From contig NC_134025.1 of NCBI RefSeq assembly GCF_964204645.1, positions 19,195,101 through 19,259,100 of the forward strand: a stretch of 64,000 bases of DNA, given 5' to 3'. The stretch is from Tubulanus polymorphus (Eukaryota; Animalia; Nemertea). Below are positions 5,930-59,539 of this stretch, piece by piece. The notes under the pieces are model-generated. The model was not told where the DNA came from and did not search any database. It saw only the letters and a list, made by a program, of their open reading frames with translations. Every line of letters begins with the position of its first letter. The stretch's first letter is position 1. The translations under genes were made by a program, and so were the position numbers.

Positions 5930-6196
5930 CTTAAAATATTCTTATACGTGAATAAAATATAAATGAATAACATATACGTATAAGTAATTAGAAAAGTAGG
6001 CTTTCAAGCCAGAGTACGAGAGTACGAGCTCTTATAGAATAGATATATAGATATATTTCAAACATTATTTCAATATTTATATTTGTATGAGTTAGATTTT
6101 TAAACATTTAAAGTGTTAGTAAAGTGTGATTGAAATAATTCATATTTAAATCATTGAACTTCTAAAATCAATTTAAAAAAACAATTTAGTATTAAA

Positions 6197-9100
6197 ATGG
6201 AAGCAAATAAGTACTACTGTTCAACATGTAATGTCAATATAGATAAATCCCAAAAAGCAAGACACAATAAAACTAAAACACATTTAGAGAATAAATTGAA
6301 ATTAGAATATGAAGATGATATATTAGAAACTAAATTAGATGAATTAAAGAATGAAAAAGAAACATATAAATGTGATACATGTAATCAATCATTCAGTGAT
6401 AAAAGATATTATAAAGAACATTTAAAATCTCATAGTCATATTAGAAATAAGAATAATGATATTTTAGGTGAGGATTATTTTGATGAAGATAACGATAAGA
6501 AACATAAGACAATTAAAAGAATAAGAAATAAATTAAACAATAAAAGACCATACATGGAAGATGTAAGAAATTATATTAATTCGTTAGATAATAAAAAAAG
6601 ATATACAGATAACCGAAGCATTTAAAAGTGATATTGGTCCAGCTGCTATTAAGTTTAAATTTCATAAAGGAAAAACATTAGAAGAAAATAAAAAACATTT
6701 AGAAAATATGAAAAATATAAAAAATAATAACTGATGTTGAATATCCTAAAATTAGTATATCTTCTAAAGTAAAGTTTATAAAATCTGAAGATAAACCAAT
6801 ATATAATATAAATTCTCATTCACAACATGTTATATCTAAACAACATATAGATGATAAATTAGATAAATGTTATAATGAAGTAAAAACTAAAATAGAAGAG
6901 AAATATTTTGAAGGATCAGGTTTAATATTTGATGAAATAATAATCATGACTTTACATGTTTATAACACAAAATATAATAAGTTAACTAAATCAAAACCAA
7001 TTGATGAAAATAATGTATCATATTATAAAGAACCAGATATTGAAGCATCGAGTTATATTAAACTACCATTTAAAACTAATGCTGTAATAAATGTACAAAA
7101 TTTTGATTATAAATGTTTTCTATGGACAATTATAAGTTGCTTACATCCAACAGAAGATATTACACATAGTTTTAGAGTAACACATTATAAACAATTTGAT
7201 AATTATTATAAGATAGATAAGTATCCTGTTAGAATTAAAAATATCCCAAAAATAGAAAGAGATAATAATTTAAGAATAAATGTATTTGATTTAATCAAAT
7301 AGCCAGATACAAAAGGTAACAATATAAAACATTATACATTAGAACCTTTATACCTATCAAAAGATTATGATTTTAATGATGTTATAGATATATTATATTA
7401 TGAAAATCATTATATGTGGATTAAACAAATCGATTTATTTTTTAAATCAGAAAATGATCACCATAAAATATATCTATGTAGAAAATGTTTACATAGATTC
7501 AGTAATGAAAGTACATTATTAAATCATAAACAATTATGTGATAATCATGATTATTGTAAATTAGTTTTACCAAATGAAAAAGATAAAATATTAGAATTCA
7601 AAAAATATGATTACAAAAATAAAGTACCATTTGTAATATATGGAGATTTTGAATCATTAAATAAAGAATTAACTGATCAAGATAGAAAAGAAATATATTA
7701 TAAAAGAAAGAAATTAAATTCTAATGAAATTGATTTTTCAGATGAACCACCAAAAACAAATACTATTAAAAAGATTCATCAATCAGCTGCAGCTTTCGGG
7801 TTATATATTAAATCTGATTATCCAGAACTAATTGAAAGTGAATATTATGATTATAGAAATGAAAATGTTATCAATCATTTTTGTGACTTATTAATTGAAT
7901 ATGAAATAAAATTTAATGAAAAGTTAAATGAAAATATAGAAATTATAATGACAGAAGAAGATAAAGAAGCATTTGAGTTTGCAGATAAATGTTATTATTG
8001 TGAAAAGATATTTAATTATAAAGATAAAAAAGTAAGAGACCATGATCATTTGAATGGAAAGTTTAGAGGCGCTGCACATGAGAATTGTAACTTACAAGCT
8101 AAGAAAATTAACTTTGTACCAGTTATATTTCATAATCTATCAGGATATGATGCACATTTATTTATCAAACAGTTATGCCATAAAATAGAAGAAATTAATA
8201 ATGAAATAGAAAGATTAAATTCAAATAGATCAAAAGATAAAATACAAACTTATAAATTTAAAATGTTAGCTAGAACATCTGAGAATTATATATCATTCCA
8301 ATTTGGGTGTCTAAGATTTATAGATTCATATAGATTTTTAAATAGTTCATTAGATAATTTATCAAAATCATTAGTTGATGATGAATTAAGAATATTAAAG
8401 CAACATTACCCAAATAATGATGATTTTCAATTAATGAGATATAAAGGCGCAATTCCATATTCTTTCTATAAAAATCATAATGATTTTAACATAACTGAAT
8501 TATTGAAAGAACAATTCTATGATGAATTAAAAAATGAATATGTTAAAGATGAAGTCTATAATAGAACATTGAATATTTGTAATCATTTCAAAATAGAAAA
8601 TCATGGACAATTAGTAGATTTATATTTAAAATCAGATGTATTATTATTATCGGATATATTCGAAAGGTTTAGAGATGTAAACTTAAAATATTTCAATATT
8701 GATCCTTGTCATCGTTATTCTAGTCCAGGTTTAACATGGGATTGTGGATTAAAATTTACAGATATAAAACTGGATTTGTTAACAAATATAGATCAATTAT
8801 TATTATTTGAAAAGTCTATAAGAGGAGGAGTTTCAGGTGTATTAGGCGATAGATATTTCAATGTAAATGATAACCCTGGATATGAGTTATTATATATAGA
8901 TGCAAATAATTTGTATGGTTGGGCAATGATGGAACCACAACCTTATGGAGTATTTGAAATAAGTGAAGTTTAACAACATGAAAATAATGATAAATTTGAT
9001 CGGAAGAAAAGAATCCTAGATATTGCAGATGATTCAGATACTGGTTACTTTTTTGTTGTAGATTTAGAATATCCTGAACATATTAAATTTAAATCTAGAA

Positions 9101-10232
9101 ATCTAGCATACTGTCCAGAACATAAAACTGTAACTCATGAAGAACTATCAAATTATCAAAAAAGAATTAAACCCGAAAATAATATTCATGCAGAAAAGTT
9201 AATGGTAACTCAGGAAGATAAATATAATTATGTAGTACATTATAGAATGTTGAAGTTTTATTTGAATCAAGGAATGATCCTAAAAAAAGTACATAGATAT
9301 ATTTCATTTAGTCAATCTAAGTGGTTAGAAAAATATATAGACTTTAACACCAAACAGAGAACTGAAGCTAAAACTGATTTGAGAAAGATTTCTTCAAGTT
9401 AATGAACAATGCATTCTATGGTAAGACTTGTGAAAATATTAGAAATAGAAATGATATTGAGTTAGTTAGTAATGGTAAAAGGATAAGGCATTTACAAACA
9501 TATCCTAAATTTATTGGTAAAAGAATATTTGATGAAAATTTAGCTGCAGTTAAGATGAGAAGAACATCAATGAAATTTAATAAACCAATTTATGTTGGTG
9601 CTTCAGTTTTAGAAATATCAAAGCTATTGATGTATGAATTCTATTATAATGTATTACAACCTCATTTTGGAGAAAAGCATATAGAAATCTTATATTTTGA
9701 TACCGACAGTTACATATTAAAGATAAAAACTAATCACATAACAGATGATTTAAAAACATTAAAACATCATTTTGATTTCAGTAATTATCCTAAAAATCAT
9801 GAATTGTTTAGCAATGATAATAAAAAAGTTCCAGGGAAGTTTAAGGATGAATTAGGTGGTGAAGAAATGATTGAATTCATTGGTATTAGATCTAAAATGT
9901 ATTCATATAAAACTAAAGAACATGAAGCCAAAAAGTTAAAAGGAATAACCAAAAGTGTAGTAGAAAAGAATATTCATTTCAGAGATTACATCAATTATAT
10001 ATTCAATGAAGAAGTTAGAAAACATAAGATGAGATGTTTAAGATCTGAAGATCATGAAATGTTTATTGAAGAGATAGAGAAGATAAGGTTGAATCCATTT
10101 GATGATAAAAGATATATTCTGGATGATGGAATTCATACAGTTGCTTATGGTTGTAATTTAGATGAATACTTAAAATTTAAAAGAGAAGAAACAAAAGAGA
10201 ACGAGATTATGAACAGGATTCTAACGTGTTAA
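6197..10232 (+). pseudogene. polB: Protein-primed family B DNA polymerase, intein-free allele, disrupted
   Basis: N-terminal C2H2-like fingers, ExoI IYGDFES, EndoVII/HNH-like CYYC..VRDHDHLNGKFRGAAHENCN, ExoII FHNLSGYD, YIDANNLYG, MNNAFYGK, YFDTDS, RSKMYS; frameshifts near 6595, 6720 and 9380, stops ending at 7302 and 8973. Confidence 0.93.
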
Positions 10233-10614: not shown

Positions 10615-10631
10615 GAAAATATGTAAAATAA

Positions 10632-11381: not shown

Positions 11382-11469
11382 TTGAATAATTATATCAATG
11401 AATATAACTGTTGGGCCGAGTATATGTTTTGGGTTTGATTTTAAACGTGAGAAAGAAATGAAATTTAAC

Positions 11470-11752
11470 ATTACTGATTTGCTTAAAGATATAGTAGCGT
11501 CGTACAATAAATCGTTTCATCGTAGTATAAAAATGGCTCCAAACGATGTCAACGAGTTAAACGCGTACAAAGTTTTCAAGAATCTATACGGTACAATCCG
11601 TAGTAAAAAACGCGTGAAATTTAAGTTTCGCGTTGGCGACACTGTGCGAATAAGCGAACTCAAAGGCCAATTTCAAAAAGGCTATTTACCCGGGTGGAGT
11701 ACCGAGTTGTTTACCGTTACGAAAAGAATTATGCGTGAGCCACCTGTATACA
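11470..11752 (+). pseudogene. Integrase fragment of the GC-rich Polinton, left of insertion B
   Basis: LKDIVASYNKSFHRSIKMAP..FRVGDTVRIS..FQKGYLPGWSTELF..PPVYK; continues in frame after the TSD at 28580-28585. Confidence 0.85.
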
Positions 11753-11829
11753 AGTAATTGTAAATGTGGGGTTTCATACCAGAGGACGAGACACCACTCA
11801 TCACCACAAGTAATTATTTTTCCTAATAA

Positions 11830-14800
11830 ATGGGAGAGAATGAACACCAGCCAGAAAATAATAATGTTAATAAAAATCAATATTATTGTCAATATTGTAA
11901 AAAATACGTCGATACATCTAATAAAACACGACATGAAAAAACTGCAAATCATATAAAAAATGTAATAGATTTTGAAACTCCAGAAAATTCCAATGAAAGA
12001 AAAGAAAGATTAGAAAATATGAATGTGGATGAAATAAAATGTGAAGTTTGTAATGAATTTATAGTAAAAAGGAATTATAATAGACATCTCGAATCACAAA
12101 AACATTATAAAAATTTAAATAAAAATGTTTTAGGATCAGAATATTTTGATAATAAACCTCAACAAGTAAAAAAATCAACTTCAAAGACTAAATCCATTTC
12201 AAATAAACCTTACATGGAAAATGTTAGAAATTATATTGATTCGCTAGAAATAACGATACAATTGAAATTTTAGAAACATTACATAGTAAAATTGGTCCTG
12301 CAGCTATTATATTTTGATTTTTTAAAGGTACTACAATAGAAGATTATAGTAAATTTAATGAAATAATAGAAAAAATACTAGATTTGATAGCAGATGTTGA
12401 ATATCCAAAAATTAGTATCTCTGGGAAAGTAAGTTTTATAAAGTCAGAAGAAAAAATGGATTATAATATTCAAACACTCTCTGAAGAAATAATTTCAAAA
12501 ACACAAATAAAAGAGAAGTTAGAAAAAATATTTTATGAATTTAAACGTCATATTGAAGAAAGATATTTTGAGGGTTCTGGCTTAACATTGAATGAAATTA
12601 TATATTTAGATTTAAATGTTTATAATACAAAAAGGAATAAAACATCAAAAAGTAATAAAATGTTTAAAAATGATTCAAACTTTACAACAGAAAAGGATAT
12701 TAAAGCATCATCTTATATTAAATTACCATTTACAACAAAAGCAGTAATAAATGTTCAAAATGAAGATAATAAATGTTTTCTATGGTCAATTATTAGTTGT
12801 TTACACCCAACAGAAGATATGACGCATAGTTTTAGAATAACAAATTACCGGAAATATGAAACATTATATAAAATTGATCAATATCCAGTAACTATAAAAA
12901 TGATTCCTAAAATAGAAAAAGTTAATAATTTAAAAATAAATGTATTCGAATTAATGCAATTACCAAAGACAAAAGGTGAAAATATTAAAGATTATACATT
13001 GGAAGCTTTATATTAACAGAATATTATGATGATGAAAATGCTATAGATTTGTTATATTACAAAAAAGATGAAAATGAACATTATATGTGGTTAAAACAAA
13101 TTGATTTATTCTTTAGAACAACAGAAAGTGATCATCATCGTAAAATTTATCTATGTAGAAAATGTTTATCTAAATTTATGACTGAGAATGCGTTACTAAA
13201 ACATAAAGAATTATGTGATAATAAAGATTTTTGTAAATTAATAATGCCAACAAAAAAAGATTGTAAGTTGAAATTTACTAATCATAAATTTAAGAATATT
13301 GTTCCATTTGTAATTTATGGGGATTTTGAATCATTGAATAAAGAATTAACCGATCAAGATAGAAAAGAAATATATAATAAAAAGCAATTATTAAAATCAA
13401 TGGATAAAGGAAGTGAATTAAATGAAGATATAATTCAAGACCCACCAATTATAAATACAATTAAAAAAGTTCATCAAAGAGCTGCTGCTTATGGAATTTA
13501 CATAAAATCAAATTATCCTGAATTATATGAAAGTCAATATATTTCTTTTAGAGGTGAAAATGTAGTTAATGATTTTTGTGACAAAATGATTGAATTAGAA
13601 AGTGATTTTGCAAAATTATTAAACAAAAATAAAAGAATAGTTATGACAAAAGAAGATGAAATTGATTTTAATTATGCAACTCATTGTTGTTATTGTGAAA
13701 AACGTTTTTATTCATTTGATAAAAAAGTTAGAGATCATGATCATTTAAATTCAAAATATCGTGGAGCTGCTCATGAAGATTGCAATTTACAAGCTAAGAA
13801 AGTTAATTTCGTACCAATATTATTTCATAATTTATCAGGATATGATACCCATCTATTTATAAAACAATTATCGGGAAAATTGGGTGCAATTAATCAAGAA
13901 ATAGAAGAATATAATGCTATGAATGAAGCAAATGTAAGAAAATATGATTTTAAACTATTAGCTAAAACATCTGAAAATTATATTTCATTTCAATTTGGTT
14001 GCATTAGATTTTTAGATTCTTATAGATTTCTAGCAAGTTCATTAGATAATTTATCAAAAAGTTTAGTTGATAATGATTTTGTTATAATTCGATATTATTA
14101 TCCAAATGAACAAGATTTTAAATTATTGAGATATAAAGGCGCAATTCCTTATTCATTTTATAAAACACACAATGATTTTAATGTAACAGAATTATTAAAA
14201 GATCAATTTTATGATCAATTAAAAGAGGAGTATGTGAAAGACGAAGTTTTTAATAGAACATTAAATATTTGGAACCATTTTAAGATGAAAAATCATGGTG
14301 AATTAGTTGATTTATATTTAAAATCAGATGTTATGATATTGGCTGACATATTTGAAAAATTTAGAGAAGTTAATTTGAATCATTTTAATGTTGATCCTTG
14401 TTATTGCTACTCTAGTCCTGGTTTAACCTGGCAATGTGGTTTAAAATATACAAATGTAGAATTAGATTTATTAAAAGAACCAGACATGGTTTTATTATTT
14501 GAAAAATCAATTAGAGGTGGAATTAGTGGTGTTATGGGAGATAGGTATTTTAAAGCAAATGATGAATATAAATTATTATATATTGACGCCAATAATTTAT
14601 ATGGTTGGGCAATGATGCAACCTCAACCATATAAAAATTTTATATAAACAGAAGTTGAAAATGGTGATAAAACTGATTGGGAAAGCGCAATTGCGAGTTT
14701 AAAAGATGAAGCACCAATTGGTTATTTCTTTGTAGTTGATTTAGAATATCCTGAAAATATAAAGTTTAAAACAAGAAACTTACCTTATTGCCCAGAACAT

Positions 14801-16891
14801 TTAACTGTAGATGATAGTTATTTAAGTGAATACCAGAAGAAAATAAAACCGAATGATCATGTTTTTACAGAAAAATTAATACTTACTCAAAATAATAAAT
14901 ACAATTATATTGTTCATTATAGAATGTTAAAATTTTATCTAAAACAAGGAATGAAATTAAAGAAAGTACATAGATATATTGAATTTAATCAATCGAAGTG
15001 GTTAGAAAAATATATAGATTTCAATACTCAACAGAGAACCATATCAAAAACAGATTTTGAAAAAGATTTCTTCAAATTAATGAATAATAGTTTTTATGGT
15101 AAAACATGTGAAAATATTAGAAATAGAAATGATATTGAATTAGTGAATAATTCTGAAAGATTAAGACATTTACAATCAAGTCCTAGCCATTTAGGAAATA
15201 AAAGATTTGAAGATTATTTAACAGCAGTTAAATTAAAAAGGACGTCAATGAAATTTAATAAACCTATATTTATTGGTTCGACTGTTTTAGAAGTATCAAA
15301 ATTATTAATGTATGATTTTTATTATAATGTTTTACAACCACTTTTTGGGGAAAAGCATATTGAAATATTATATTTTGATTCTGTAACAGCTGACACCCCA
15401 ATATTATTAAAATGTAATGATAAAATATTGATAAGAAGAATTTCAGAAATAATTCCAAAACAAAATGAATGTTATATTTCATATGGAGAAAAAGAATTAA
15501 TGCAAATAAATGGTTTAATGGATGTTTGGACAAGTAATGGATGGAAAAAATTAAAGAATATTATTAGACATAAAACAAATAAGAAAATCTATAGAGTTAG
15601 AACTAAATTAGGATTTGTAGATGTTACAGAAGATCATAGTTTAATTAAACGAAATGGCGATGAAATAAAACCAACTGATATAAAAATTGGAGATGAATTA
15701 TTACATAAAAGATTTTTCCAAAGAATGAATCATATGTCATTTGATGAAATTATTGATAATATTTATAATATAGAACCCGAAACATTAGAAGAAAAAGAAT
15801 ATTTTATCAAAGGATTTTTCATGGGTGATGGTTCAGCAGGTGTGTATAATTATGTTAATCGCACTCAATATCGTTGGTATTTATGCAATCAAGATTTGAA
15901 ATTGTTAGAAAGAATAAAGAAATTCTGCGAAGAAGTTTATTCACATAAAACATTTAGAATCATGGATCATATGAAATCATCCGCGGTTTATAGAATATTT
16001 GTAGATAATCCTAAAGATTTTGCTACAAAATATAATGATGAATTCTATATTCATGCAATAGTGAAAAGTAATACTTCAACTAAAGAAAAGATAGTTCCAG
16101 ATTATGTATTAAGTGCAAAAAATAATTTAAGAAAATGGTTCTTCATTGGATTCTATGCAGCAGATGGTTCAAAAAGTTTCAAAACAATATCTTTAGCTCA
16201 AAAAGGAAAAGTTGCTATATCAGGATTGAATATATTATGCAGTTCATTAGGATTTAATATGAATATAGAATTAATTAAATCTAAACCAAATTGTTTTAAT
16301 TTAAGGCATGTAGAAAAAGAATTAACAGAAGAAGTTAAAGATTTATTTGAAATATATAACCCAACTGACTATGTTTATGATTTATCAACAGATGATGGAA
16401 CATTCAATTCTGGGTTCCCATTAATCCAAAAAAATACTGACAGTTACATACTAAAAATCAAGACAAATGATATAACAAAAGACTTAAAAACATTAAAACA
16501 TTATTTTGATTTTAGCAATTATCCCAAAGATCATGAATTGTTTAGCAATGATAATAAAAAGATTCCTGGTAAATTTAAAGATGAATTAGGGGGTGTTGAA
16601 ATGATTGAATTTGTTGGGATAAGAAGTAAAATGTATAGTTACAGAACAAAAGATCATGAAGCTAAAAAGTTAAAAGGAATAACAAAACATGTGGTTGATA
16701 AACATATAGAATTTCAAGATTATATAAAGTGTTTATATAAATCAATTGTAATGAAACACAAAATGAATTGTTTAAGATCAGAAGATCATGAGATGTACAT
16801 TAATGAAGTTGAAAAAACTAGTTTAAATCCATTTGATGATAAAAGGCATATTTTAGATGATGGTATAAAAACATTACCTTATGGTCATTAA
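11830..16891 (+). pseudogene. polB: Protein-primed family B DNA polymerase with intein, disrupted upstream of the intein
   Basis: Same motif order as copy A (IYGDFES, VRDHDHLN, FHNLSGYD, YIDANNLYG, KLMNNSFYGK, YFD/TDS, RSKMYS); frameshifts near 12250 and 13013, stop ending at 14647. Confidence 0.93.
15380..16435 (+). mobile_element. Intein (352 aa) with LAGLIDADG homing endonuclease in pPolB motif C
   Basis: In-frame 1056-bp insert between YFD and TDS, absent from copy A; block A SVTADTP, block B VTEDHSL, LAGLIDADG-like FIKGFFMGDGS and FFIGFYAADGS, block F YVYDLST, C-terminal KN followed by Thr. Confidence 0.95.
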
Positions 16892-18200: not shown

Positions 18201-18267
18201 TTATTAAGGAAAAATTTTATTAAAATTAATTTTTAGTGATGAGCGGTAATTTTTTATGTTATAGATA

Positions 18268-19026
18268 ATGGTAGAATTAAAAGAATACAGAATATTTGTT
18301 GATTCTAGAAAACTTACAAATTATAAATCACATAATTTACTAGTACAATTAGATAGAGAATTTAAGAATTGTGTAGATTTAAAATTAGTTAATATAAGTT
18401 TATGTAACTCATTTTACAATATATCGGATAAAAGTCTAGAACATTTAATTTTTTCAATCTTTTACAAAAAAAGGAATAAATGGTTTTTTTTATATTTAAA
18501 ACCAGGATTATATAATTTAGATACATTAGCACAAGAAATTAATAGAAAAGCTCGAGCTAAATTAGGAAGTGATTCCGGATTTAGTATTAGAATTTTAAAA
18601 AGTGATAGTGCTAATAAAATAAAGATTAGGTTAGCTAATGACGAACAATTTAAATTTACAGTAAGAAAACCTTTAGGTAAACTGTTAGGAATTAACCCAG
18701 ATATTGTTACAGCATACGCAGAAGGTAGATCAAACTTAATACCTTTTACACATTTTTATATTTATTGCAATTTGATTAACCCAACAAAAACATTTGAAGC
18801 AACTAAAGATACAATTTGTAATTCTGGTTTATTAAATATTTTACCATTAAAAAATGTCAAACAATTTGGAACTCAAATAAATTATAATTTAACTGAATGT
18901 GATTTCAAACCTTGTATTCCACATTTCAATAATTTTAAATTAGAAATAAGAAATCATAATGGTTATTTAATTGATTTGAATAACTTTCCTGTAATTTATG
19001 AATTAGTTATAAGATGTAAAGAGTAA
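18268..19026 (+). CDS. Minor capsid (penton-like, single jelly-roll) protein
   Basis: N-terminal IFVDSR, PGLYN, IYCNLI..LNILP, C-terminal LIDLNNFPVIYELVIR; pattern and size typical of Polinton/PLV minor capsid proteins. Confidence 0.7.
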   Translation: MVELKEYRIFVDSRKLTNYKSHNLLVQLDREFKNCVDLKLVNISLCNSFYNISDKSLEHLIFSIFYKKRNKWFFLYLKPGLYNLDTLAQEINRKARAKLGSDSGFSIRILKSDSANKIKIRLANDEQFKFTVRKPLGKLLGINPDIVTAYAEGRSNLIPFTHFYIYCNLINPTKTFEATKDTICNSGLLNILPLKNVKQFGTQINYNLTECDFKPCIPHFNNFKLEIRNHNGYLIDLNNFPVIYELVIRCKE

Positions 19027-23421: not shown

Positions 23422-24577
23422 ATGAGTGGGAGTTATATAAGTCCTTCTAAGATTTCTAGAATATCTAATGCTATTAAAGCAGAAAGATCACATCGTATAA
23501 TTACTCATAACCCTTCAAATATTAATCCCGATGAAACTTTATATGTTAGAATTCCTAGATTAACACAAAATACTTTTTACGTTCCAAATAGTATTTATTT
23601 ATCAGCCGATATAAAAGTAACTGGCCATGATAACAATTATGTTATTGATAATGTTGGAAGATATTTGATTAAAAAATTAACTATAAAGATTGGTCCAGAA
23701 ACAGTTTTCTCATTAGATGATTATAATTTATTCATGCATTATAAAGATTTATGGTTAACTAAAGAAAATAGAAATAATTTGATATTTCAGGGTATTCAAT
23801 CGGAAAACCATAATAAATTAAGATCAGGAGCTAATGACGCAATAGTAACTCGTGCCACAGATAATTTGATTAAAAAGATTTATGGAAGCAAATATAAAAT
23901 TCCATTAGATTTTGAATTGATAAATAATAATGCACCTTTATATAAATACGCAATTCAAGAAGATATTATATTTGAGATAACATTTGCTCCTGTAAATGAA
24001 ATTGTATTATCTAGCGTTGTTAAAGATATGGGTTATAAATTATCGAATATATGTTTAGAATATAACACAGTAAATAATGAAAATATTGCTAGCACAATTC
24101 AAACTCAATACAATCAAGGATTTTCATTATTATATGATTATATTGATAAATTTAAAACCATAACTATTAATGCAAATGATGAAATAATTAATGAGAATAT
24201 TAACTTCCCAAGAAGATCTATTAAAGGTATATTAATATTTTTTACCATTGCAACATATTCTAATGGTGCAATAAAGGTAGATAATTATTATAATCCTGAA
24301 ATAACAAAAGTAGAAATAACTATCGAAGGAATAGCAAATAAAATATTTTGCCAAGGAATGAGAATGATAGATCAGTGGCCAGAAATTAGAAAACATTTTA
24401 TGAATGAAAAAGTAAAATCATTTGAAAATTGTAATATTAATCAAATTCATTATTATACCGGCAATAAATATGCATTATGGTTAGATTTTAGAACAACAGA
24501 GGATAATGCACATTTATATTATATCTGACGCGCAATTAAATATTGTAAATTCACAATTAGATAGTATTCAATATTAG
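23422..24577 (+). pseudogene. Major capsid protein (double jelly-roll type) of the AT-rich family, frameshifted near C-terminus
   Basis: ITHNPSNINPDETLYVRIP, NVGRYLIKKLTIKIG, YALWLDFRT; likely true end ISDAQLNIVNSQLDSIQY* lies in another frame; located before integrase/ATPase. Confidence 0.75.
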
Positions 24578-24607: not shown

Positions 24608-25275
24608 ATGGGCGGTAAAAAAACTCCTAATACTAAAGAACAATATTTAAGAAATTCATATTACAACCCTGAGAGTTCAGTTGCTTATTCTTCTACTAAA
24701 AATATATGGCGTCAAGTAAAACAAGATAAATTAGATAAGATAATCCCACAAAATTTAGTTAAATATAAAGATATAAATGAATTTATGTTAGAACAACCAA
24801 CATATACAACACATAAAAAACTTATCATTCTTCTATTGGAATGAAACCTATTGATGCTAGAAAACCTGAAAATGCTGAAATTGTTTGGAATAATTTATAT
24901 GGAGCATTTCTTGTAGATGATTTTGGTGAACCTAAATTTAAAGTTGGTCAAAATGTTAGAATTTCTAAGTATAAAAAGATATTTGATAAAGGATACGATC
25001 GAAATTTTACTAGAGAAATATATAAAATAAAAAAGGTAATAACAACAAAACCATATGTCTATAAATTAGAAGATTTAGATGGTGAAGAAGTTGATGGCTA
25101 CTTTTACGAAGAAGAATTAAGTTTAACTACTGAAAATCTAGAACAAGAATATAAAATTGAAAAAGTATTAAAAACAAAAACTATTAAAAGAAAAAAATAT
25201 TCTTTAGTAAAATGGGTTGGATGGCCAGATAAATTCAATGAATGGATATTATCAAGTAAAATTAAAAATATATTA
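24608..25275 (+). pseudogene. Retroviral-like integrase with catalytic core deleted
   Basis: Matches 38875-39966 but lacks ~457 bp (39055-39511 equivalent) at 24820/24821; chromodomain-like LVKWVGWPDKFNEW retained; stop mutated TAA>TTA. Confidence 0.9.
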
Positions 25276-25884
25276 ATGAATAAAGAATTATTTATATTTG
25301 AGCCTCATAATATGTTAATATCTGGCGTAACAAATTGTGGAAAAACTTATTTTATATTAAATTTATTAGAAACTGTTTATGAAAACTATTTTGATAATAT
25401 AGTATTATTTTGCCCAACGTATGAATTTAATCAAACTTATGATAGAAATATTACTAGAAATAATAAATTTATTATATTAGATCCTAAAACAGTAAACGAA
25501 AATTTAAATAATTGTATTAAAATAGCAATTGATATTTATAAAGGATCAAATACATTATTTACCATACATGATTGCGCTAATCTACATGATTCAAAAGTTA
25601 GAGAAAGTGAGTTATGTTATTTAGCTTTCTCCGGGAGACATTTCGGGATAACAACTTGGGTTTTAAATCAAAAATATAATTCAATTGTTAAAGACTTTAG
25701 AGAAAACATTAGATTTCTAGTTTTATTTTATAACAAAGATAGAAAATCGATGAAAAATGCACTTGAGGAAAATGATATTATTCCACATGATTTACATAAT
25801 GAATATATGGATAAGTTGAAAAATATTAAAAGATCAAAATTACTATTTAGATTACAACACCCATTTAAATATGAATTTATTTAA
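25276..25884 (+). CDS. A32/FtsK-like DNA packaging ATPase
   Basis: Walker A GVTNCGKT; Walker B altered to TIHD (IIDD in the 39967 copy); SGRHFGI and VLNQKY motifs. Confidence 0.85.
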   Translation: MNKELFIFEPHNMLISGVTNCGKTYFILNLLETVYENYFDNIVLFCPTYEFNQTYDRNITRNNKFIILDPKTVNENLNNCIKIAIDIYKGSNTLFTIHDCANLHDSKVRESELCYLAFSGRHFGITTWVLNQKYNSIVKDFRENIRFLVLFYNKDRKSMKNALEENDIIPHDLHNEYMDKLKNIKRSKLLFRLQHPFKYEFI

Positions 25885-28167: not shown

Positions 28168-28494
28168 TTAATCAACAATTTCTAAATCATGATGACCGTC
28201 TTCATTTTTCCCATGATATATTATTTTAAATCCTACTAAATCTTTCAATTCCTCTGTACTCAATGAAACCCATTTATCGGGTAAAAACACTTTAAATTCT
28301 CGTGATGTACTAACATTACAGTAGCTTAAATTAGCTGATACTTTCTCTCCATATTTAGTTTTTATCTTTTCTAATTTCAATATCTTATGTTCAATTTCTT
28401 TTGTAACATCAACTAACTTTTTTATTTCAAATTGTTTTTTTGTTGGTTTAATTCTGTTATTTATTGTTGCTAAGAATGCTTTTCTATCTCCCAT
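28168..28494 (-). CDS. Small conserved Polinton protein (possibly OB-fold nucleic-acid binding)
   Basis: 108-aa ORF starting inside the right TIR; homologs at 10263, 43491-43816 and ~44357; fold assignment is inference. Confidence 0.65.
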   Translation of the reverse strand: MGDRKAFLATINNRIKPTKKQFEIKKLVDVTKEIEHKILKLEKIKTKYGEKVSANLSYCNVSTSREFKVFLPDKWVSLSTEELKDLVGFKIIYHGKNEDGHHDLEIVD

Positions 28495-28585
28495 TTATTA
28501 GGAAAAAAAATTACTTGTGGTGATGAGTGGTGTCTCGTCCTCTCGTCCTCTGGTATGAAACCCCATATTTACAAATACTTATACA

Positions 28586-28797
28586 AGATTAAAGATTTAC
28601 AAGACGTAACAATAGATGGCGTATTTTACGGATACGAGTTGATAAAATTCAATAAAAAGGATGAAACGTATAAGATCGAGTCGATAATTAAAACTCGGGG
28701 TAAAGGCGTTCGAAAACAAAACTTGGTAAAGTGGTATAACTATCCCGATAAATTCAATTCTTGGGTGAACGCTCGAGATATCAAGAAGTTAACATGA
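28586..28797 (+). pseudogene. Integrase C-terminus (chromodomain-like) of the GC-rich Polinton
   Basis: IKDLQDVTIDGVFYGYEL..YKIESIIKTRG..LVKWYNYPDKFNSWV. Confidence 0.85.
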
Positions 28798-29621
28798 GTC
28801 AGGATTTTTACGTATATCTCAAAAGCGATGCTAGCGTAGACATTTATCCCGATAATACGCAACATAGTTTTAAAGTTCGATTACGAACACCGATTTCACT
28901 TCAAGGCAAATGGGTTTGCGCTTTACATCAAATAAACTTTATGGCAGATTTCAATAATGTGAACAATGGTAGATTTCAATGTACGTCGTCTGAGCAAGGA
29001 ACTCATTATCTCAATATACCCGAAGGTCGTTATTTGACAATTACCCAATTAATTGTGGCTATACAAACAGAGTTAAACAAATGGTATGATAATAAGATAG
29101 TTCTTGCATTCAATGAACTAAGTCATAAAGTTTGTATCCGATTTTATGACAACTGCACAATAACTTTTACGAGTGATATTGCGTGGATTTTGGGTTTTAA
29201 AGAAAATATACCGATTAACGAAGATATAACAGATCATCGTCAAGGCTCTAAAATACATGGTCCTATACTGTCAGATTCATCCGATAGTAAAACAGTTTAC
29301 AAATACATCGAGGTTACTGCAGCCCGCAGTTCGGATATAAACGTCGATTATCATAATTTAATGATATATACAGATGTTATCGAACCTCAGCTGGTCGGAC
29401 ATCAAAGCGCAAATCTCTTGCGCATGATTGATTTGAATCCGAGAAATTTTGGTAAAATTGTTGGTCGAGAATTTACCAAGTTACAATACTTTCCACTACA
29501 GAGACGGAATTTCCAAACTATAGAAGTCTTTATAAGAACTGAATCCGGGAGAATACCCGTGCTCAGAAAAGGAAAAGTTAACTTAGCTTTACATTTTAAA
29601 AAGAAGAATTTATTGCTATGA
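28794..29621 (+). CDS. Minor capsid protein (penton/PX)
   Basis: MSQDFYVYLKSDAS..YPDNT..F.VRL..PI.L.GKW.CAL and IYTDVIEPQLVG..LLRMI pattern; ATGA overlap with integrase stop. Confidence 0.85.
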   Translation: MSQDFYVYLKSDASVDIYPDNTQHSFKVRLRTPISLQGKWVCALHQINFMADFNNVNNGRFQCTSSEQGTHYLNIPEGRYLTITQLIVAIQTELNKWYDNKIVLAFNELSHKVCIRFYDNCTITFTSDIAWILGFKENIPINEDITDHRQGSKIHGPILSDSSDSKTVYKYIEVTAARSSDINVDYHNLMIYTDVIEPQLVGHQSANLLRMIDLNPRNFGKIVGREFTKLQYFPLQRRNFQTIEVFIRTESGRIPVLRKGKVNLALHFKKKNLLL

Positions 29622-30042
29622 GGGCTCTCTGCGAAATCGATCGGGATGCTTGTTGTAAATATTACATGAACCAATGCGGTTCGGGTATTGACGTATACAC
29701 GGCCTCTCCGTACAAGGCGGTGCTGGATTTGCATCAGTCTTGGGCGGGTTGACTCGACCAGCTATTCCACTACTAAAAAATATGGCCTAGCAAGCGGTTC
29801 CTCATTTACTGAGAACTGGTTTACACGTAGCCAGCGATGTGGTAGGCGGTAAGAATATCGCGACAGCCATCAAAGATCGTGGCATCGAAACAATGGGTCG
29901 CATTATCAGACGAAGCTTAAAAAGACCATCTACCTCAACCCCAAAATCAATAAAAGGTCGTAAACGAAGTAGACGTATAACAACCGGAAAACGTGTACGA
30001 AAAACCAAAGCAACCGCTGAAGCGTACTTATGTCGTTATTAG
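29618..30042 (+). pseudogene. Small Gly-rich/basic virion core-like protein, disrupted
   Basis: YYMNQCGSGI..GGAGFASVLGGLTRPAIPLLK..Arg/Lys-rich tail; one frameshift and one stop; lies between penton and hexon genes. Confidence 0.6.
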
Positions 30043-31245
30043 TACATAAGGATTCGCCATTGTGCGTCAAGTCTGAACTCGATCTGTTTACAGTTCCCGG
30101 AACACAGATAAATTTCAAAGAATGCCGATACGTTAGTTATGAGCCTACTACATCGATTAACGATATGGGACCGATTGTATTCAGAGTACCAAAAACTGAA
30201 CTGAACTGGCGCCTATAGTCTATTTAGCGATGTACAAATTACGCTTAACGACCGAGTGGTTACCCACGACGGTGGCTTATACCCGTTCAAGTGTGAGCTG
30301 GAAAATATGGTTAATTACAACTCGGAAACTAAAAACAACAGCTGGCTACAATGTGATCTTTACGCCGAAGACGAAGCCGGGAAGAAAGCAAACATCGATC
30401 CTACTTTACCGGACGCAAATTCCGGTTTGGTCAGAAGAAATAACTACACTAAAGGCAGTAAACTGGTTTGCGCTTATTCGCGTTTGTATAGCGATGTAAT
30501 GAAAATGAATAAGATTTTCATCAACAATACAGATTAATAAATAAAACTAACTCGATCAAAGGAAAGTTTTGCTCTAGTTTCCCCCGCCGAAAACCCAGAT
30601 TTTCGTATAAAGATTGAAAGCGCTCAACTATACATTCGTAAACTAGAATTGGATAGTTCTGTTTTAATAGCGCATGCTAAAGCAATGGAAAAGAATACAG
30701 CAAAATATTATTTTTCGAGAACTGAATTATTATCGTTAAATATTCCAAGAGGTCATAGAACAATTATCAAGGACTCCGTTTTCGTCGGTGAGATACCAAA
30801 GGCTATTGTTTTAGCTTTAGTGGACGACGACGCGTTGAGCGGTAATTACAAAAAGAATCCGTTCGATTTCAAGGATTATTCATTGAATTATATAGGGGTG
30901 ACCATTGATAATGTCCATGCACAAAACTCGCCGTTACTTATAGACTCTCGTGGCGACGGTTGCGAAGTGTATCACGGTTTATATTTAGCCCGGGGCTTAT
31001 TGTATAAAAACGAAGGAATTGGGATAAAACGCGAGGATTTCAAAAATGGTAATTTTATTTGTGGATTCAATATATCGCCAGAGTATGGGGATCAAACGCA
31101 TCTGTCACTAATTAAAAAGGGGTCATTAAAAATCGAAATGCGATTTGATGAAGCTTTACCGCATAACGTGAATTTGATTGTTTACGCCGTTTTCGACGAA
31201 TTACTACAAGTAACTAAAGAACGTCATATAGAGATCGATTATTAG
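30030..31245 (+). pseudogene. Major capsid protein (hexon/PY), disrupted
   Basis: CVKSELDLFTVP.TQ start, LYPFK, G.IPK.IVLALV..GNYKKNPFDF, GSLKIEMRF..LIVYA.F end; broken at ~30217 and 30537. Confidence 0.88.
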
Positions 31246-31250
31246 CGACC

Positions 31251-31715
31251 ATGTTGTACACAAACCAAATTTTAGAATTTATGAAAAAAGACGAATGTCT
31301 AAATACGTCTTTCTTTGGTGTTTTTCCATGCGATCGACTACCGAATATAACGAGCTATCCCGCTGGTTATATAGTAAACACTGATAATCACGACGAGCCG
31401 GGTGAACACTGGCTAACTATATATATAAACGAATACGGCATCGGTTATTTTTTTTATTCCTTCGGGCAACAACCCGGAACTTATGATAAAATGTTAGAAA
31501 AATACTTGGATGAAAATTGTATAGAATGGAAATATAATAATAAGATGTATCAAAATGTATTATCCGATGTATGCGGTTATTACGCTATATTTGTACTATT
31601 ACACCTATGTCACGGTAACGATGTACGCGATATTACGAAACTATTGTCAAACAAAACTACTGATAATGATTATTTTGTAAAAAAATTTATCGTGAAATAT
31701 TTTAAGCTTCTATAA
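31251..31715 (+). CDS. Adenain-like cysteine protease
   Basis: IVNTD...PGEHW, FYSFG (Asp normally expected at the Y), YQ..SDVCGYY. Confidence 0.88.
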   Translation: MLYTNQILEFMKKDECLNTSFFGVFPCDRLPNITSYPAGYIVNTDNHDEPGEHWLTIYINEYGIGYFFYSFGQQPGTYDKMLEKYLDENCIEWKYNNKMYQNVLSDVCGYYAIFVLLHLCHGNDVRDITKLLSNKTTDNDYFVKKFIVKYFKLL

Positions 31716-37756: not shown

Positions 37757-37847
37757 TGTCACCCTGATATAATTTGCATATTTCATAATCATATAGATCT
37801 ACAATGTCATATCGAACAGTTCATAACATTTCATAGCTCTACAACAT

Positions 37848-37926
<79 letters not shown>

Positions 37927-41265: not shown

Positions 41266-41344
41266 TAATCCAAAATATACCAGACCGAGTAAATTTCCAA
41301 AACGACCTTAACACACTGTTCGACCAAAAAACTTAATGTTCCGA

Positions 41345-45565: not shown

Positions 45566-48500
45566 ACTCTAATAATAATATAACAGTCTCTTTCTGCGCG
45601 TAGTTTCTATGGATGTACTGTGCTTCGTATTTTAAACTTGAAGTTACTTAAAGATAACACCGGTGGAAATAGCAATCATCAATCATCAATCATGGCGCGC
45701 ATACTGGTGCGAATCTGAAAGTTAGTGACGTCATTTCATAAATAGATAAATAAGGAAGGCTCCGAGAATATACAAACCACTGGTTACTGTGAATAACTGG
45801 GGTTCGACCATTCACAAGTTAAAGATGTTCTTCCTTGTTTGTGAAGTAAGTTTATTCATGCTGTTATTAAAAGCAGTTCCTTTTAAACATTCTATAATAG
45901 TATAGTTTTGTTCGTGGATATAATACTTTGAAAAATCAACAGCAGTTTATTTATTTACTGTACAGGTACTCGTTTTCTTAATTGAATTGAATTGGTCCGG
46001 TCCAAAAAGCGGGTCATACTAGTTAGCGTCAGAAAATGTCAGCGTCGGTGATACCTTGTTATCGTCGATATTAAACGGTCTAAAGTCAGTTTACACATCA
46101 CATACATTACAAATTGGAGGGCCCTTGTACATGTACATCACATCGTGACGCAGCGGCGATGGTAATGTCATAGAAGAACAAAGTCAGTTGAAAATACCTA
46201 CCCACTGCACCGATATTCAATTTCATATGCGATTTCATATGCGAATTGTAGTCCCCATCTGATCGCTTGACTTGTCACTCCTCTACTAATAGTAACACTA
46301 TAAGGCCTTCCCTCCTGCATAGTTTACCCTATAGGCCAAATTTGTGCTTTGGGCCAAATTCGGTTTTCTTATCTAGTCAACTTATTTTCGGAACTAATTA
46401 TAACCGAATATGCGCTTAAACTGTCACTAGGAAATGGTAGAAACACCGTAGCTTCGTTCTTCTCGATGTTATTTCCCCCAAAACCTGGCACATTAGTACT
46501 TTGCGCGTAGTAGCACATGCGCGTAGTAGCACATGTGGGTCAACATATCCATGTTGTGAGTTGACCCCTAGGTGGCACTCTTTCAAAAAAAAGGAATGTA
46601 ACGAACTGATTCCGGGTGAAATCTTTGCTCGCATTCCTGAACGACATTTTATCCAGAAAGGCAGAAACCGTTGTCGCTGCTTGCAGCTATATTTTCTTAT
46701 TATTCTATGAATTTGTAATAATTCTGTTCACCGATCTGTTTGACTTCTGAATTTGATTTATATATGTTTCATTCTGTACTGATGGGAGATTTATTAGGTC
46801 ATAATAAATCGCTTGTCATATTCATATATCCAAAGCTTCTTGTTTGAATTGTATGGACATCGGACATGGAACAACGCCTTAATCATTGGTCCCTCGAACC
46901 GGATTGCTGTATCTAAGGATAGGTACAGTGGATCGTCACCGTGGATGTGTGATTTAGACTGCAGTTCGGAAGTGAACTATTTGGTAGCTGTGTGTGTTCG
47001 TTTATTCTGGTTTAAGTGAGCGCGCGTAAATCTTTCCAGAATGGAGCGTATGGCACTGAAGACACAGGCTCTTATGCATCAAGTTAGCAGTCTTTTGCAG
47101 ATAGTGAAACCATTTTTTGAAGATTCGTCGAAAACGGTTTCAGCTAAATTAATGAAGTCGAAATTAGCCTCATTACGAGTCTATCAGGAAAAATATGAAG
47201 ACGCTCATGAAATGTTGTTCACGGAGGCAGACGATACCGATACTAAAGCTTTGAACAAATCTTACGATGATTTTCAGTCTCTAGCTTTTCAAGTAGAGTC
47301 AATGATTGATGAAATTATCAACCGTTCACAGCCCGAGACAGCTGAATCAGTTTCACCTAGTCATCAGGAAATTTCACGTATCGTCGCGGAAATTGTTCGT
47401 GTTCAAACTACCACCACCGAGACATCAAGGCTCCCTAACTTGGATATTAAGTCGTTCAGTGGAGGTTACACCGAGTGGTTGGAGTTTTGCGATTCATTCC
47501 AATGTACCGTAGATTGTCGAAAAAATTTGGCTCCTGTAGAGAAGCTGAAATATCTGAAGTCTTGTATGAAAGATAAAGCGGCTAGTTTTATCAAGTCTAT
47601 TGCTCTAAAAGACGAGAATTATTCGATAGCTTGGGATAAGTTGCGTGCGAGATATGACAATAAAAAGGCTATTCGTGACGCGCATTTCGATAAGATTTTC
47701 AGTACCCCAACAATTTCAGCGAGAACTACTTCAGGATTGCGAAAATTAGTTAGTGGAATATACGAAAATGTACAGTCGCTCGAAAACCTTGGTGAAAACG
47801 TTGACAGCTGGGACTCTATATTGATATATATTACGAAGCGTAAGCTAGATCACGATACTCGTTTAGAATGGGAGAGGTCAGTGAAACCAAACGACAATCC
47901 TACATTCTTGTCTATGGTTGAATATGTGAATAGCTTCGCTTGTGCTATAGAATCATCAGACAGTCGACCCACATGCACTGACCATTCGAGTGTCAAAGCT
48001 TTTCATACGTCAACCCAAAGTGAGGAATGCTATCTATGTAAAGGGAGGCACCATTTACCGCATTGTTCGGATTTTCTAAAGCTTACGTCTGAGTTGAGAA
48101 GACAGAAGGTTGCTGACCTAAAAATATGTTTTAACTGTTTGTCACCGAGACATTATGTTTCAAGGTGTTCAAAGTCGGTTAGCTGTAAAAATTGTAAAAA
48201 GAAGCATCATCCGTTAAAAGAAGCATTATCCGTTAAGAAGCATCATCAAGATGTTAATGTGTCAGCGGACAATGCTACTGTTACGAGCTCTGAAAATGTT
48301 TCTAGCCATTTTTCCGCATTGAAGAAATGTGAGGTTTTATTAGCTACCGTAGTTGCGAATGTCCGATCTACTGATGGAACTTTGATTCCGTGCCGGGTAT
48401 TAATCGACCCAGGTTCACAGCGCAGTTTTATGAGATATTCGTTTGCGAAGCGTTTGAAGCTATCAACGAGGACTGTTGCCGATATATCCGTCAATGGCAT

Positions 48501-49302
48501 TGGAGATAGCTCTCCTGGTCATGTATGCGACATAATAACTTGTCACTCGTCTCCAGTACTTTCGAATGACCATAGTGTCACCGTTGAAGCATTTTTGATG
48601 GAGCGTGTACCTTCAATGATCCCCAGTGAAAATGTGAACCTTGAACATTATTCGAAGTTAATGAATCTACCGCTTGCTGATATGTGTCTTCAAAGGCCGA
48701 GTGAGATCGATCTATTGCTTGATGCCGACGTTTATACTTATTTGTTACCTGAAGACACGGATGTCAAAAGATTCAGTGGATTATGTGCGCAGAAAACAAT
48801 TTTCGGATATGTTCTAATCGGAGAGGTGTCTAACGTGGATTCTGAAGTTGCATCAGTGTGTTCTCATTACGCTAGTGAAGAAACAACGACGAGTACTGAT
48901 TACCTATTGAAATGTTTTTGGGAGATCGAAAACATTCCTAGTACAGCTGCTTTATCACAAGAAGAAAAGATTTGTGAAAATCATTTTGAAGAAACGACTG
49001 TTCGAAATTCTGATGGCAGATATACCGTTTCTCTCCCGTTTCGCGATGGTACAACTCTTGGGGAAAGTAGAACTCAAGCTGTTAATCGCCAGAAGGCTCT
49101 TGAACGCAGGTTGGACTACAATCCGCAGTTAAAGCAGGAGTATTGTAAAACTGTTACAGAATATATTGAGTTGGGTCACGCGGAATTGGTAAATAACGTG
49201 TTGAAAGACTCATGCGATGTTTATTATTTACCTCATCATTGCGTTTTGAAGGAAAGTAGTACGACCACAAAGCTTCGTGTTGTATTCGATGCTTCGGCTA
49301 AA

Positions 49303-50084
49303 CGGTATTCGAAAAACGCCTAATGAAAAACACCGAATCGGAAAACGCATAACGCCTGATTCAAGTAACATCCAAGAAATTGACCTAAATCCCTACGTGA
49401 ATTATGTACGCAACGCTACATAGTTCACGTCGGAGTGCGTGGAGCGCCGCCTGTTCCATCTTCGTTTCTACTGTCTTTGGTTACACAGGCTTATCTGTGT
49501 TATTATTTCATATTAAGACAGAGTATTATGATAATAAAAGACATCATATTTTTTATATGGAACATATAGTTTATTATTTTTTGTTCAAGGAAGTTCAGGG
49601 GCTGGACATTATTTAGTCTCTCATTGGTTCGGTAGGTTCACATAAACGTGGTTGTGAACAGTTTTGGAGGATAATTTTGAGAAAGGCTATTTTATCAGTC
49701 TTTGTGTGCGTTGTACCTACGAGCGTAGGTTGTACCATATTTATGCATTCCAGTTTCAAAATTCAAGAAAGCCGGTTTATAACCGCGGCGTTTGTTTTCG
49801 CGTTATCATAGAAGTGTAAACTGTTTCAGTTTACACTTCTATGGCGTTATGTAATTAATTGCTTGCACTGCGGACATTCTATCATCATCCTATAATGAAG
49901 TTTATTAGAGTGGTAGTCTCGTTTCGTGAAGCGTAAAACACATGTATTTTCAAACTGTTCCGTTGATGAGTTGGATTGTGAGTCTCAGTAGATGGTGCAA
50001 TTACGAAATTAGGTCATTTTCTAGGAATTAGGCGTTATGCGTTTTCCGATTCGGTGTATTTCATTAGGCGTTTTTCGAGTACCG
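49303..50084. mobile_element. MITE with long TIRs and 9-bp TSD (Mutator-like)
   Basis: cggtattcgaaaaacgcctaatgaaa / tttcattaggcgtttttcgagtaccg; TSD TCGGCTAAA; interrupts FDASAK. Confidence 0.85.
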
Positions 50085-50955
50085 TCGGCTAAAACATCGA
50101 CTGGTATTTCACTTAACGACCGGTTGATGGTTGGACCTCGTGTGCAGCAGGATTTATTGAAAATTATTTTGCGTTTCCGGATACATCCGAGCATGGATAA
50201 AGTTGCGGCTAAATCAAAAGTGGCACCAGTTAAAAAAGTGTCAATACCCCGTCTCGAGTTATGTGCTGCTCATTTACTGTCAAAGTTATTGGAATACATT
50301 TTAGCTGCAATGCATCCAATTCGTAAACCAGACATCTATGCGTGGTCTTATTCTTCGGTTACTCTTGATTGGATTTGTGGAGATTCTCGGCGCTGGAAAC
50401 CATTTGTTGCGAACCGTGTTAGTGCTATACAGGACGTAATTAGCCCATGTCAATGGTGATATTGTCCTTCTGATGTGAACCCATCTGATTGCGCCTCACG
50501 AAGTATCATGCCAGCTGATCTTCATTACCATGCGTTATGGTGGAACGGTCCTACCTGGTCACAATCTGGAGAATGGCCCGACCAGCGTCGTCCGTATAGT
50601 TAAAGAGATTCAGTGTGCGAAATGAAAAAGAATGTTGTTCATTGCACCGTAGCGACAGTTGATAGTGCGTTAAAGATGGAATTATTTCCGTACTCCAGTC
50701 TATCTAAGTTAATCAGGATTTCGGCGTGGTGTTTTCGGTGGATCTTTAAAAAAGGATCTAATGCGCATTTAACCGTCGATGAAATACGAAGCTCTCTTGC
50801 GTTTTGGATTAAATCCGTGCAAAAAGATCATTTCAACGCTGAAATAGGTCTCCAGCATGAAAAACCGATATGCAATCGCAGCAAAATCAAACAATTGAAT
50901 CCGTATCTCGACACTCAAGGCATACTTCGTGTTGGCGGAAGATTGAGTGAAGCGC

Positions 50956-51268
50956 CAGACGCGGATCTAGGGAGGGGACCCGGGCCCCTCCCTCCTTTAA
51001 GTGAAGATCGTTTTTTTCGACCGACCTCCCGCCACTCGCTTAATATTAACGCCGCGCTGTGTAGTATTTGTCATGAATTTTTGCCTCAGAATGCAGGAAA
51101 TGGCCCCAAAACAGAGTTAAATTTCAAAAATTTTACCAGACCCCACAGGGGCTTCGCGCCGCGCGTAGGAACGTCTCGCGCCTACGCCCTCGGTGTCAAT
51201 ACAGTATCATCATAGCTACATTTATTCGGTGCCTCCCCCCTCTAAATTGGGCTCTAGATCCGCCCCTG
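50956..51268. mobile_element. Short MITE
   Basis: cagacgcggatctag / ctagatccgcccctg termini; AGCGC on both flanks. Confidence 0.7.
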
Positions 51269-59500: not shown

Positions 59501-59539
59501 GAGTGCAGGGGAATGTGCAGTTATACTTACGTAAATAAT

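Follow-up and report, generated by a model that had tools for sequence, protein, structure and literature searches.

Could a protein-splicing intein be lodged in the DNA polymerase of a Polinton, and could that Polinton have taken it into an animal chromosome? The question is raised by a 64,000-nucleotide stretch of DNA (the window), in which an insert splits the catalytic motif of a polymerase gene. The first-pass annotation of the window held that inteins are essentially unknown in animal nuclear genes, and two reviews agree, according to whose accessible text metazoan genomes (PMC5784728) and multicellular organisms (PMC5874633) lack inteins. Here, we describe the insert, its host element and its relatives. 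As a whole, we hold it quite probable that this is a pol-c intein in the protein-primed family B polymerase (pPolB) of a Polinton, predicted to splice, likely to home and likely of a giant-virus lineage, in a dead copy that likely lies in an animal chromosome. The features concerned are listed in Table 1.

Table 1. Features of the intein, its host element and the surrounding DNA, by position in the window
Feature	Position	Strand	Remarks
Paralogous pPolB, intein-free, of a neighbouring, likewise broken Polinton	6177..10232	+	Empty site 9701/9702
Target-site duplication TATACA, left copy	11747..11752
Left terminal inverted repeat	11753..11837	+	Begins AGT
pPolB, Beta-like, with HNH/EndoVII insert, broken	11830..16891	+	Pfam DNA_pol_B_2 (PF03175) E 2.5e-13
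Intein, 352 aa, Ser1 to Lys-Asn	15380..16435	+	Hint domain split by two-motif LAGLIDADG endonuclease
His64 after Arg63	15569..15571	+	NX-motif His of Ser1 inteins, by motif and conservation
Block B, Thr83-Glu-Asp-His86	15626..15637	+	His in 113/113 homologs
First LAGLIDADG helix, Asp150	15800..15838	+
Second LAGLIDADG helix, Asp262	16136..16174	+	Pfam LAGLIDADG_3
Block F (Asp334) to block G (Lys351, Asn352) and Thr+1	16376..16438	+	Short C-terminal form NSGF-PLI
Candidate minor capsid gene (by position)	18265..19026	+	DUF5901 E 0.003 only; copy with 83% DNA identity at 10626-11492
Major capsid protein-like ORF, tail in another frame	23422..24528	+	Capsid_N E 0.022
Integrase remnant with chromodomain	24639..25275	+	About 400 bp of core missing compared with copy 38873-39966
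A32-type packaging ATPase	25276..25884	+	Pox_A32 E 1.8e-10
Right terminal inverted repeat	28487..28579	-	Ends ACT; differs from left arm by 3 substitutions and an 8-nt indel
Target-site duplication TATACA, right copy	28580..28585		Interrupted integrase frame of the other Polinton resumes here
Genes of interrupted Polinton: candidate capsid-like ORFs and adenain-type protease	28752..31715	+	Peptidase_C5 E 0.004
BEL/Pao LTR retrotransposon, marker of animal context	47020..54022	+	Interrupted by IS1595/Merlin-type transposon

Anatomy and predicted fold of the insert

The insert is 1056 bp long and in frame, as had been annotated: 352 codons without a stop, beginning SVTADTP and ending GFPLIQKN, are placed between YFD and TDS within a larger ORF (14648-16891). 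About 35 stops would be expected in random DNA of the same composition (P(0) = 7e-17), and the opposite strand of the same interval has many. The boundaries are exact, because the paralog in the same window has the identical flanking protein, GEKHIEILYFD/TDSYILKIKTN, with no insert at the junction. At the nucleotide level, the empty site of the paralog and the flanks of the intein are identical at 28 of 30 nt. No second copy of the intein is found in the 64-kb window.

The motifs are given under the customary intein block names. All those annotated at the outset are present, namely Ser1, the TxxH of block B, the two LAGLIDADG helices, block F, the Lys-Asn end with no penultimate His, and Thr+1; the conserved Lys residues of the LAGLIDADG endonuclease (K237 and K275) are present too. 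Conservation was counted on 113 full-length homologs extracted from the best 120 of 843 long-protein matches. Among these 113 (from the best 120 of 843), His86, Asp334 and Asn352 are invariant and Asp150 and Asp262 almost so, the NX-motif His occurs in 112, and the flanks are YGD/TDS or YGD/TDC in 100, which is the pol-c site. The window intein deviates at 8 of 63 highly conserved columns, with the catalytic ones untouched. The Lys-Asn end had been noted as a peculiarity, but Lys is the majority state of the penultimate residue (73/113 of the same homologs, Mimivirus included), and many of the Lys-ending homologs sit in uninterrupted full-length PolB. The penultimate His and the block F His are both absent here, likewise in 63 of the 113. 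According to the accessible text of PMC10189870, the NX motif is needed in Ser1 inteins, and Arg63-His64 fits it. The LAGLIDADG endonuclease looks intact and is predicted to cut DNA.

In the profile searches, TIGR01445 matches the intein above its cut-off and LAGLIDADG_3 of Pfam matches it with E 7.4e-7, whereas Intein_splicing of Pfam (E 2.7e-7) reaches 31.0 bits, below its cut-off of 35.8. The AlphaFold2 model, computed from a 68-row alignment, has a pLDDT of 94.9 (folding of the single sequence gave only 38). Its best Foldseek matches are PI-PkoII, TliVMA, PI-PfuI and PI-SceI, with I-DmoI too. The VIA comparison of the model with 2cw7 (PI-PkoII) gave Z 28.5 with 310 aligned and rmsd 4.2, and that with 9hth gave Z 17.1 and rmsd 2.4, so that the predicted structure does match a Hint fold. 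Among viral models, those of phycodnavirus, pandoravirus and marseillevirus PolB are closest to the predicted fold. Taken together, the anatomy, the match of the modelled fold and the site show the insert to be a homing-endonuclease intein of the pol-c type, which is predicted to splice.

Splicing would follow the class 1 pathway, in which Ser1 would form the ester with the aid of His64, His86 and Asp334, Thr+1 would take over the ester, Asn352 would cyclise, and YFD-TDS would be rebuilt. Since YFD-TDS is the metal-binding motif of the polymerase, splicing would be indispensable for an active element.

The host polymerase and the nest of Polintons

As judged by tblastn with the intact relative P0430, the reading frame of the pPolB gene shifts near 12250 and again near 13010, and it is cut by stops at 12315 and 14645. 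The first-pass annotation had set the open intein against the broken gene upstream. Both facts stand (no stop in the former, four lesions in the latter), but the contrast does not go beyond chance: with four lesions in 4006 bp, the probability of none in 1056 bp is 0.35. In addition, the C-extein and the 732 bp immediately upstream of the intein are open. Consequently, the unbroken frame marks a real gene but lends no support to selection or recent activity in this copy. This Polinton copy is dead. Reassignment of stop codons is an unlikely cause of the in-frame stops, since these differ in position between the two paralogs and intact relatives read through in the standard code. Co-conversion between the two copies in the window was rejected as well, the flank identities being 0.93 and 0.80 against 0.57-0.97 in other 30-nt windows. 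The GC and GC3 values of the intein (0.255/0.14) and the extein (0.24/0.14) are alike, so that recent foreign origin is without sign.

Polintons/Mavericks follow a rule of 6-bp target duplication. The intein-bearing Polinton is 16,827 bp long and is inserted within the integrase of another Polinton; its role as the carrier is borne out, since the terminal inverted repeats and the TATACA on either side mark a real insertion. The capsid-like ORF has atlas feature matches of 0.97 to viral and capsid clusters, with a low recognition score, and the integrase core that it lacks is kept in the fragment at 38873-43886, which is 93-97% identical (rve E 4e-10). An adenain-type protease is typical of group 1 Polintons and variable in group 2; none occurs among the scanned ORFs of the intein-bearing Polinton, and one is found in the interrupted neighbour. 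No target-site duplication joining 5995 and 43888 was found. The intein-bearing copy is a fossil within a nest of Polinton pieces.

Other pieces were also observed in the window. A third, rearranged copy of the same Polinton family (37653-43890) has a polB fragment joined with a fuller integrase, the ATPase and the right terminal repeat. On the reverse strand, the ORF at 33111-33749, which probably belongs to the interrupted Polinton, has two PC4 single-stranded-DNA-binding domains (E 2e-12). One arm of a 268-bp palindromic element (5662-5929), possibly a non-autonomous derivative, resembles the Polinton terminal repeat (28/33 nt). A composite repeat built of tandem units of 152-155 bp and of 31 bp also occurs in three copies and in both orientations (865-1851, 35615-36887 and 41506-42741).

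The chromosome that holds the element

According to the accessible text of PMC3118150, BEL/Pao elements are reported from metazoans only. Among 28 matches to the one in the window, those with a name come from arthropods and one nematode, apart from one 2.7-kb contig that bears the label of a bacterial MAG. The named eukaryotic relatives of the extein among the best 120 are from Tubulanus (a nemertean), Pinctada (an oyster), Ladona (a dragonfly) and Oculina (a coral), all of them intein-free, while one further relative carries a bacterial MAG label. Based on the flanking BEL/Pao element and these named relatives, the host is very probably an animal. Of the claim that a Polinton took the intein into an animal chromosome, the insertion is real, as its termini and target duplication show, and the animal host is likely.

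However, the window might not be animal nuclear DNA: it might come from a protist or from another eukaryote with Polintons, belong to a cobiont contig, or result from chimeric assembly. An intein in a pPolB would then still be new, but the animal-genome claim would fail. No host protein-coding gene was recognised among the 94 ORFs scanned in the window, the named BEL/Pao relatives are only 20-34% identical, with the MAG-labelled contig as the top match, related Polintoviricetes occur in protists and fungi (bioRxiv 10.64898/2026.06.19.733378, available text), and a 99% palindrome (54607-64000) may be an assembly artefact. We consider such a source improbable, given the metazoan range of BEL/Pao and the animal names among the relatives of both the retrotransposon and the extein; moreover, the presence of satellites, of LINE and Merlin-type elements and of nested insertions bounded by a clean target duplication is in keeping with a repeat-rich chromosome.

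Two of these repeats deserve description. The DNA transposon at 52322-53845, of the IS1595/Merlin type, has inverted repeats of about 240 bp and lies within the BEL/Pao integrase region. The inverted repeat 54607-57951/60633-64000 is 99% identical over at least 3.3 kb and continues beyond the window; its spacer holds fragments of LINE reverse transcriptase, and a scrap of Polinton polB (54469-54619) adjoins its left end. It is either a fold-back element or an artefact of assembly.

Relatives and their distribution

The intein search covered the best 120 of 843 long proteins and the best 150 of 2082 representatives, which gave 256 proteins. The hosts of these listed homologs are RNA-primed PolB in 222 cases and pPolB in 8, with 26 unclassified. 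Among the best 120 relatives of the extein, 10 bear the intein and 110 are empty with an exact site, by which six further pPolB carriers were gained. At least 14 pPolB clusters (90% identity, some partial) have an intein at the YxD/TDS site, namely P0002-P0007, P0017, P0184, P0320, P0324, P0327-P0329 and P0340. Among the matches listed, the closest inteins are those of P0184 (74%) and P0002 (63%). By identity, the seven best single-intein matches listed (45-63%) are all pPolBs, followed by RNA-primed PolB inteins with up to 42%. P0007 is an Alpha-type polymerase, whose intein is 46% identical to that of the window while the exteins are unalignable; the same holds for P0022, P0099 and Mimivirus, the inteins of the four being 37-46% identical. 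The catalytic positions are retained in the window intein and the other pPolB inteins examined.

No pPolB host was found among the 188 viral and metagenome loci listed, no intein-bearing pPolB among the 41 prokaryote loci listed, and no intein among the 31 Beta-type pPolB loci listed in viral contigs. With P0002 as the query, no match was obtained in viral contigs, and phage records gave two weak matches at 27%. Judging from the 0/188 viral and metagenome loci and the 0/31 Beta-type viral loci, the pPolB intein is rare. As far as these sequence comparisons tell, it is nevertheless an established lineage across several Polinton families, with filled and empty alleles, and therefore the jump did not take place in this copy.

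Two side observations concern the wider family. The same intein family occurs in other proteins (P0008, P0042 and P0261), two of them type II topoisomerases and one an ADP-ribosylglycohydrolase-like protein with a GGD/TDT site, which suggests that the family has moved to other D/TD-like sites. Close pol-c intein homologs (29-35%) were also seen on contigs of archaeal and bacterial MAGs (L189-L193), which are likely misbinned giant-virus contigs.

Origin of the lineage

Separate trees were built for the intein and the extein, as had been proposed. In the intein trees, the pPolB inteins except P0340 form one clade with support of 0.999 (114 rows), 99 (a quick tree of 66 rows, 55 of them dereplicated non-pPolB rows) and 100/100 (a careful LG+G4 tree of 38 rows, the bootstrap of which is not fully settled). 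This main clade comprises ten of the 14 pPolB clusters and the window, and groups among giant-virus pol-c inteins. It joins RNA-primed PolB inteins including ChoanoV1, the GFPL-type giant-virus group, with support of 97 in the quick tree and 54/92 in the careful tree. The short C-terminal form NxGF-PLI is common to 7 pPolB and 26 RNA-primed PolB rows of the 114, ChoanoV1 included. On this basis, the pPolB intein lineage is likely of giant-virus origin. The first-pass annotation had proposed a jump from giant-virus PolB into pPolB: the nearest non-Polinton relatives are indeed those of giant viruses, and the direction is likely, with the alternative left by an AU p of 0.074. A Beta-only clade without P0007 is also unrejected (AU p 0.41).

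That alternative is a reversed direction or a shared ancient pool, in which Polinton-like elements would be an old reservoir of pol-c inteins, exchanged with giant viruses either way. A tree constrained to keep the pPolB clade outside every RNA-primed pol-c intein is worse by 31.6 log units and is unrejected at the AU p of 0.074; the stem to the pPolB clade is long (0.4 changes per column), and P0340 falls elsewhere, though a single clade with it is also unrejected (AU p 0.148). However, the listed homologs in RNA-primed PolB (222/256) have far deeper diversity, the short C-terminus is common to just a subset of RNA-primed PolB inteins, and a pPolB host is wanting among the viral and metagenome loci listed. 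We thus regard a reversed or pooled origin as highly improbable. P0340 itself is a pPolB whose same-site intein has the long C-terminal form and lies apart from the main clade, possibly as a second entry.

Under the favoured giant-virus origin, there would have been one entry into pPolB in a co-infected cell. This first entry would be a rare event, because the giant-virus target sites of 8 loci match the empty site of the window at only 9-14 of 18 nt. The intein would afterwards have spread with and among Polintons, reaching the very distant Alpha-type polymerase, and the element would have integrated in the germ line, nested in another Polinton, this copy decaying afterwards.

Homing or vertical inheritance

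How does the intein pass among Polintons? Its endonuclease would cut the empty YxD/TDS site of a co-resident Polinton, and repair would copy the intein from the filled copy. In the extein tree (59 rows, with 40 of the 110 empty relatives chosen; P0184 and P0340 are misaligned and their places void), the intein is patchy: 14 changes are needed, and tips with an intein have sisters without one. The 136 members of the P0003 cluster lie on contigs of up to 1 Mb, and the 15 listed consist of 7 filled, 6 empty and 2 in which the site is not covered. Between filled and empty alleles, identity is 98.5% off the site and 55.6% at it, and all 12 fixed differences (7 filled vs. 3 empty) fall at -7 to +44 of 1191 residues. 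Within the 6 empty alleles, which bear TDA or CDS where TDS is expected, the insertion site is the most variable stretch (82.6% vs. 97-98%). These site-centred differences may reflect a co-conversion tract, escape from cleavage, or both, and one recombination event could have produced them. In the P0005 cluster (121 members), the 15 listed yield 5 filled alleles and a single empty one, with identical flanks. Given the size of the contigs and the number of copies, we infer that the P0003 and P0005 contigs are eukaryotic genome contigs.

Based on these sequences, the intein likely spreads by homing among related Polintons. Against this, the neighbouring empty allele of the window is unfilled despite its near-perfect match. 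It is conceivable that the intein entered Beta-type Polintons once, long ago, and has since been handed down vertically, with repeated loss through precise deletion or through recombination with an empty allele; homing would now be rare or absent and the endonuclease a passenger. The intein and extein trees roughly agree among Beta-type hosts, which fits inheritance with repeated loss too, the identities of intein and extein to the window track each other (63% vs. 60% for P0002, 49% vs. 44-46% for P0003), and the differences in P0003 could be of a single event. However, both catalytic Asp residues are retained over 46-75% divergence, the P0005 alleles differ in the intein with identical flanks, 110 of the best 120 relatives are empty with the site exact, and the intein also occurs in an Alpha-type polymerase with an unalignable extein. 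Purely vertical descent with repeated loss is thus unlikely, and homing is preferred. The P0003 cluster (P0122-P0135, ENA contigs), with intact filled (1537 aa) and empty (1191 aa) polymerases that are 98-99% identical, is a better study system than the dead copy of the window.

A bolder version is that a giant-virus-derived lineage colonised animal Polinton pPolBs, crossed between Alpha and Beta types, still homes in animal genomes and drives escape at the catalytic motif. We put it forward tentatively, the odds being somewhat against it. If homing is ongoing there, animal germ lines carry working inteins and homing endonucleases.

Implications and comparison with known systems

What is new is the class of protein that hosts this intact-looking pol-c intein, which belongs to a small lineage that has been overlooked. 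No intein in a Polinton or adintovirus polymerase was found in the open-access PMC and bioRxiv literature, nor was one found in the accessible text of PMC12220804, PMC3671162, PMC13768754 and PMC12721341; prior documentation of this allele in Polinton pPolBs, which would have removed the novelty, was likewise not met with in that literature. If it is a true intein, it would be the first in a protein-primed PolB as far as the open-access PMC and bioRxiv literature shows. It would also demonstrate gene flow between giant viruses and Polintons, and this implies that the two have shared a cell. Because the multicopy families include filled, empty and site-divergent alleles, homing and target escape can be counted directly in a eukaryotic genome; such families are also relevant to whether replication and recombination of Polintons take place off the chromosome. 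Another question is why inteins, once in animal nuclei, have stayed out of the genes of the host. It should be noted that the intein gene belongs to a mobile element and not to the host.

The carrier resembles the Beta adintoviruses or Maverick-Polintons (Starrett et al., 2021, PMC8502044; bioRxiv 10.64898/2026.06.19.733378; accessible parts), with a pPolB, an rve integrase with chromodomain, an A32 ATPase, a candidate capsid gene and inverted termini. It differs from them in that the intein is present, a protease is undetected among its scanned ORFs and the copy is broken; the available text of the two sources does not mention inteins. HNH and VSR nuclease inserts have been described in Polinton pPolB (Jeong et al., 2023, PMC10748475, accessible text), and the HNH-type inserts have been suggested to stem from invasion by inteins (Krupovic et al., 2024, PMC11161782, accessible text), an idea of which the window intein, if true, would be a real case. 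Like those inserts, it places an endonuclease domain inside a Polinton polymerase, and the pPolB of the window also has an HNH/EndoVII-like insert. Unlike them, for which the available text of PMC10748475 describes no Hint or splicing motifs and does not use the word intein, it is a full intein splitting the catalytic motif.

Viral-like PolB inteins are also known in endogenous giant-virus elements of Klebsormidium, Tetrabaena and a labyrinthulid (Gallot-Lavallee et al., 2023, PMC10710043), and as there, a virus-borne PolB intein lies on a nuclear scaffold. The hosts in that study, however, are algae and a protist; its accessible text mentions neither Polintons nor metazoans, whereas here the vehicle is a self-integrating multicopy Polinton, likely in an animal genome. 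Among the Ser1 inteins of the cysteine-less class, PolB16, Aes123 PolB1 and PI-PkoII (PMC10189870, accessible text; PDB 8cpn, 9hth and 2cw7) share with the window intein Ser1/Thr+1 and the Arg-His NX motif, and the predicted structure matches them with Z 15-28. Unlike them, the window intein is contiguous, has non-junction cysteines and sits in a eukaryotic mobile element.

An intein was reported earlier in an insect iridovirus, and PolB of Mimivirus has a pol-c intein (Ogata et al., 2005, PMC549080, accessible text). The Mimivirus intein has the same motif site (YGD/TDS there, YFD/TDS here), Ser1, Asn and Thr+1, the TxxH motif, two LAGLIDADG motifs, a length of about 351 aa and a Lys-Asn end, and is 37% identical to the one in the window. 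In contrast to it, the window intein has a shorter C-terminal block and resides in an integrated element, in a protein-primed Polinton polymerase that is unalignable with the PolB of Mimivirus.
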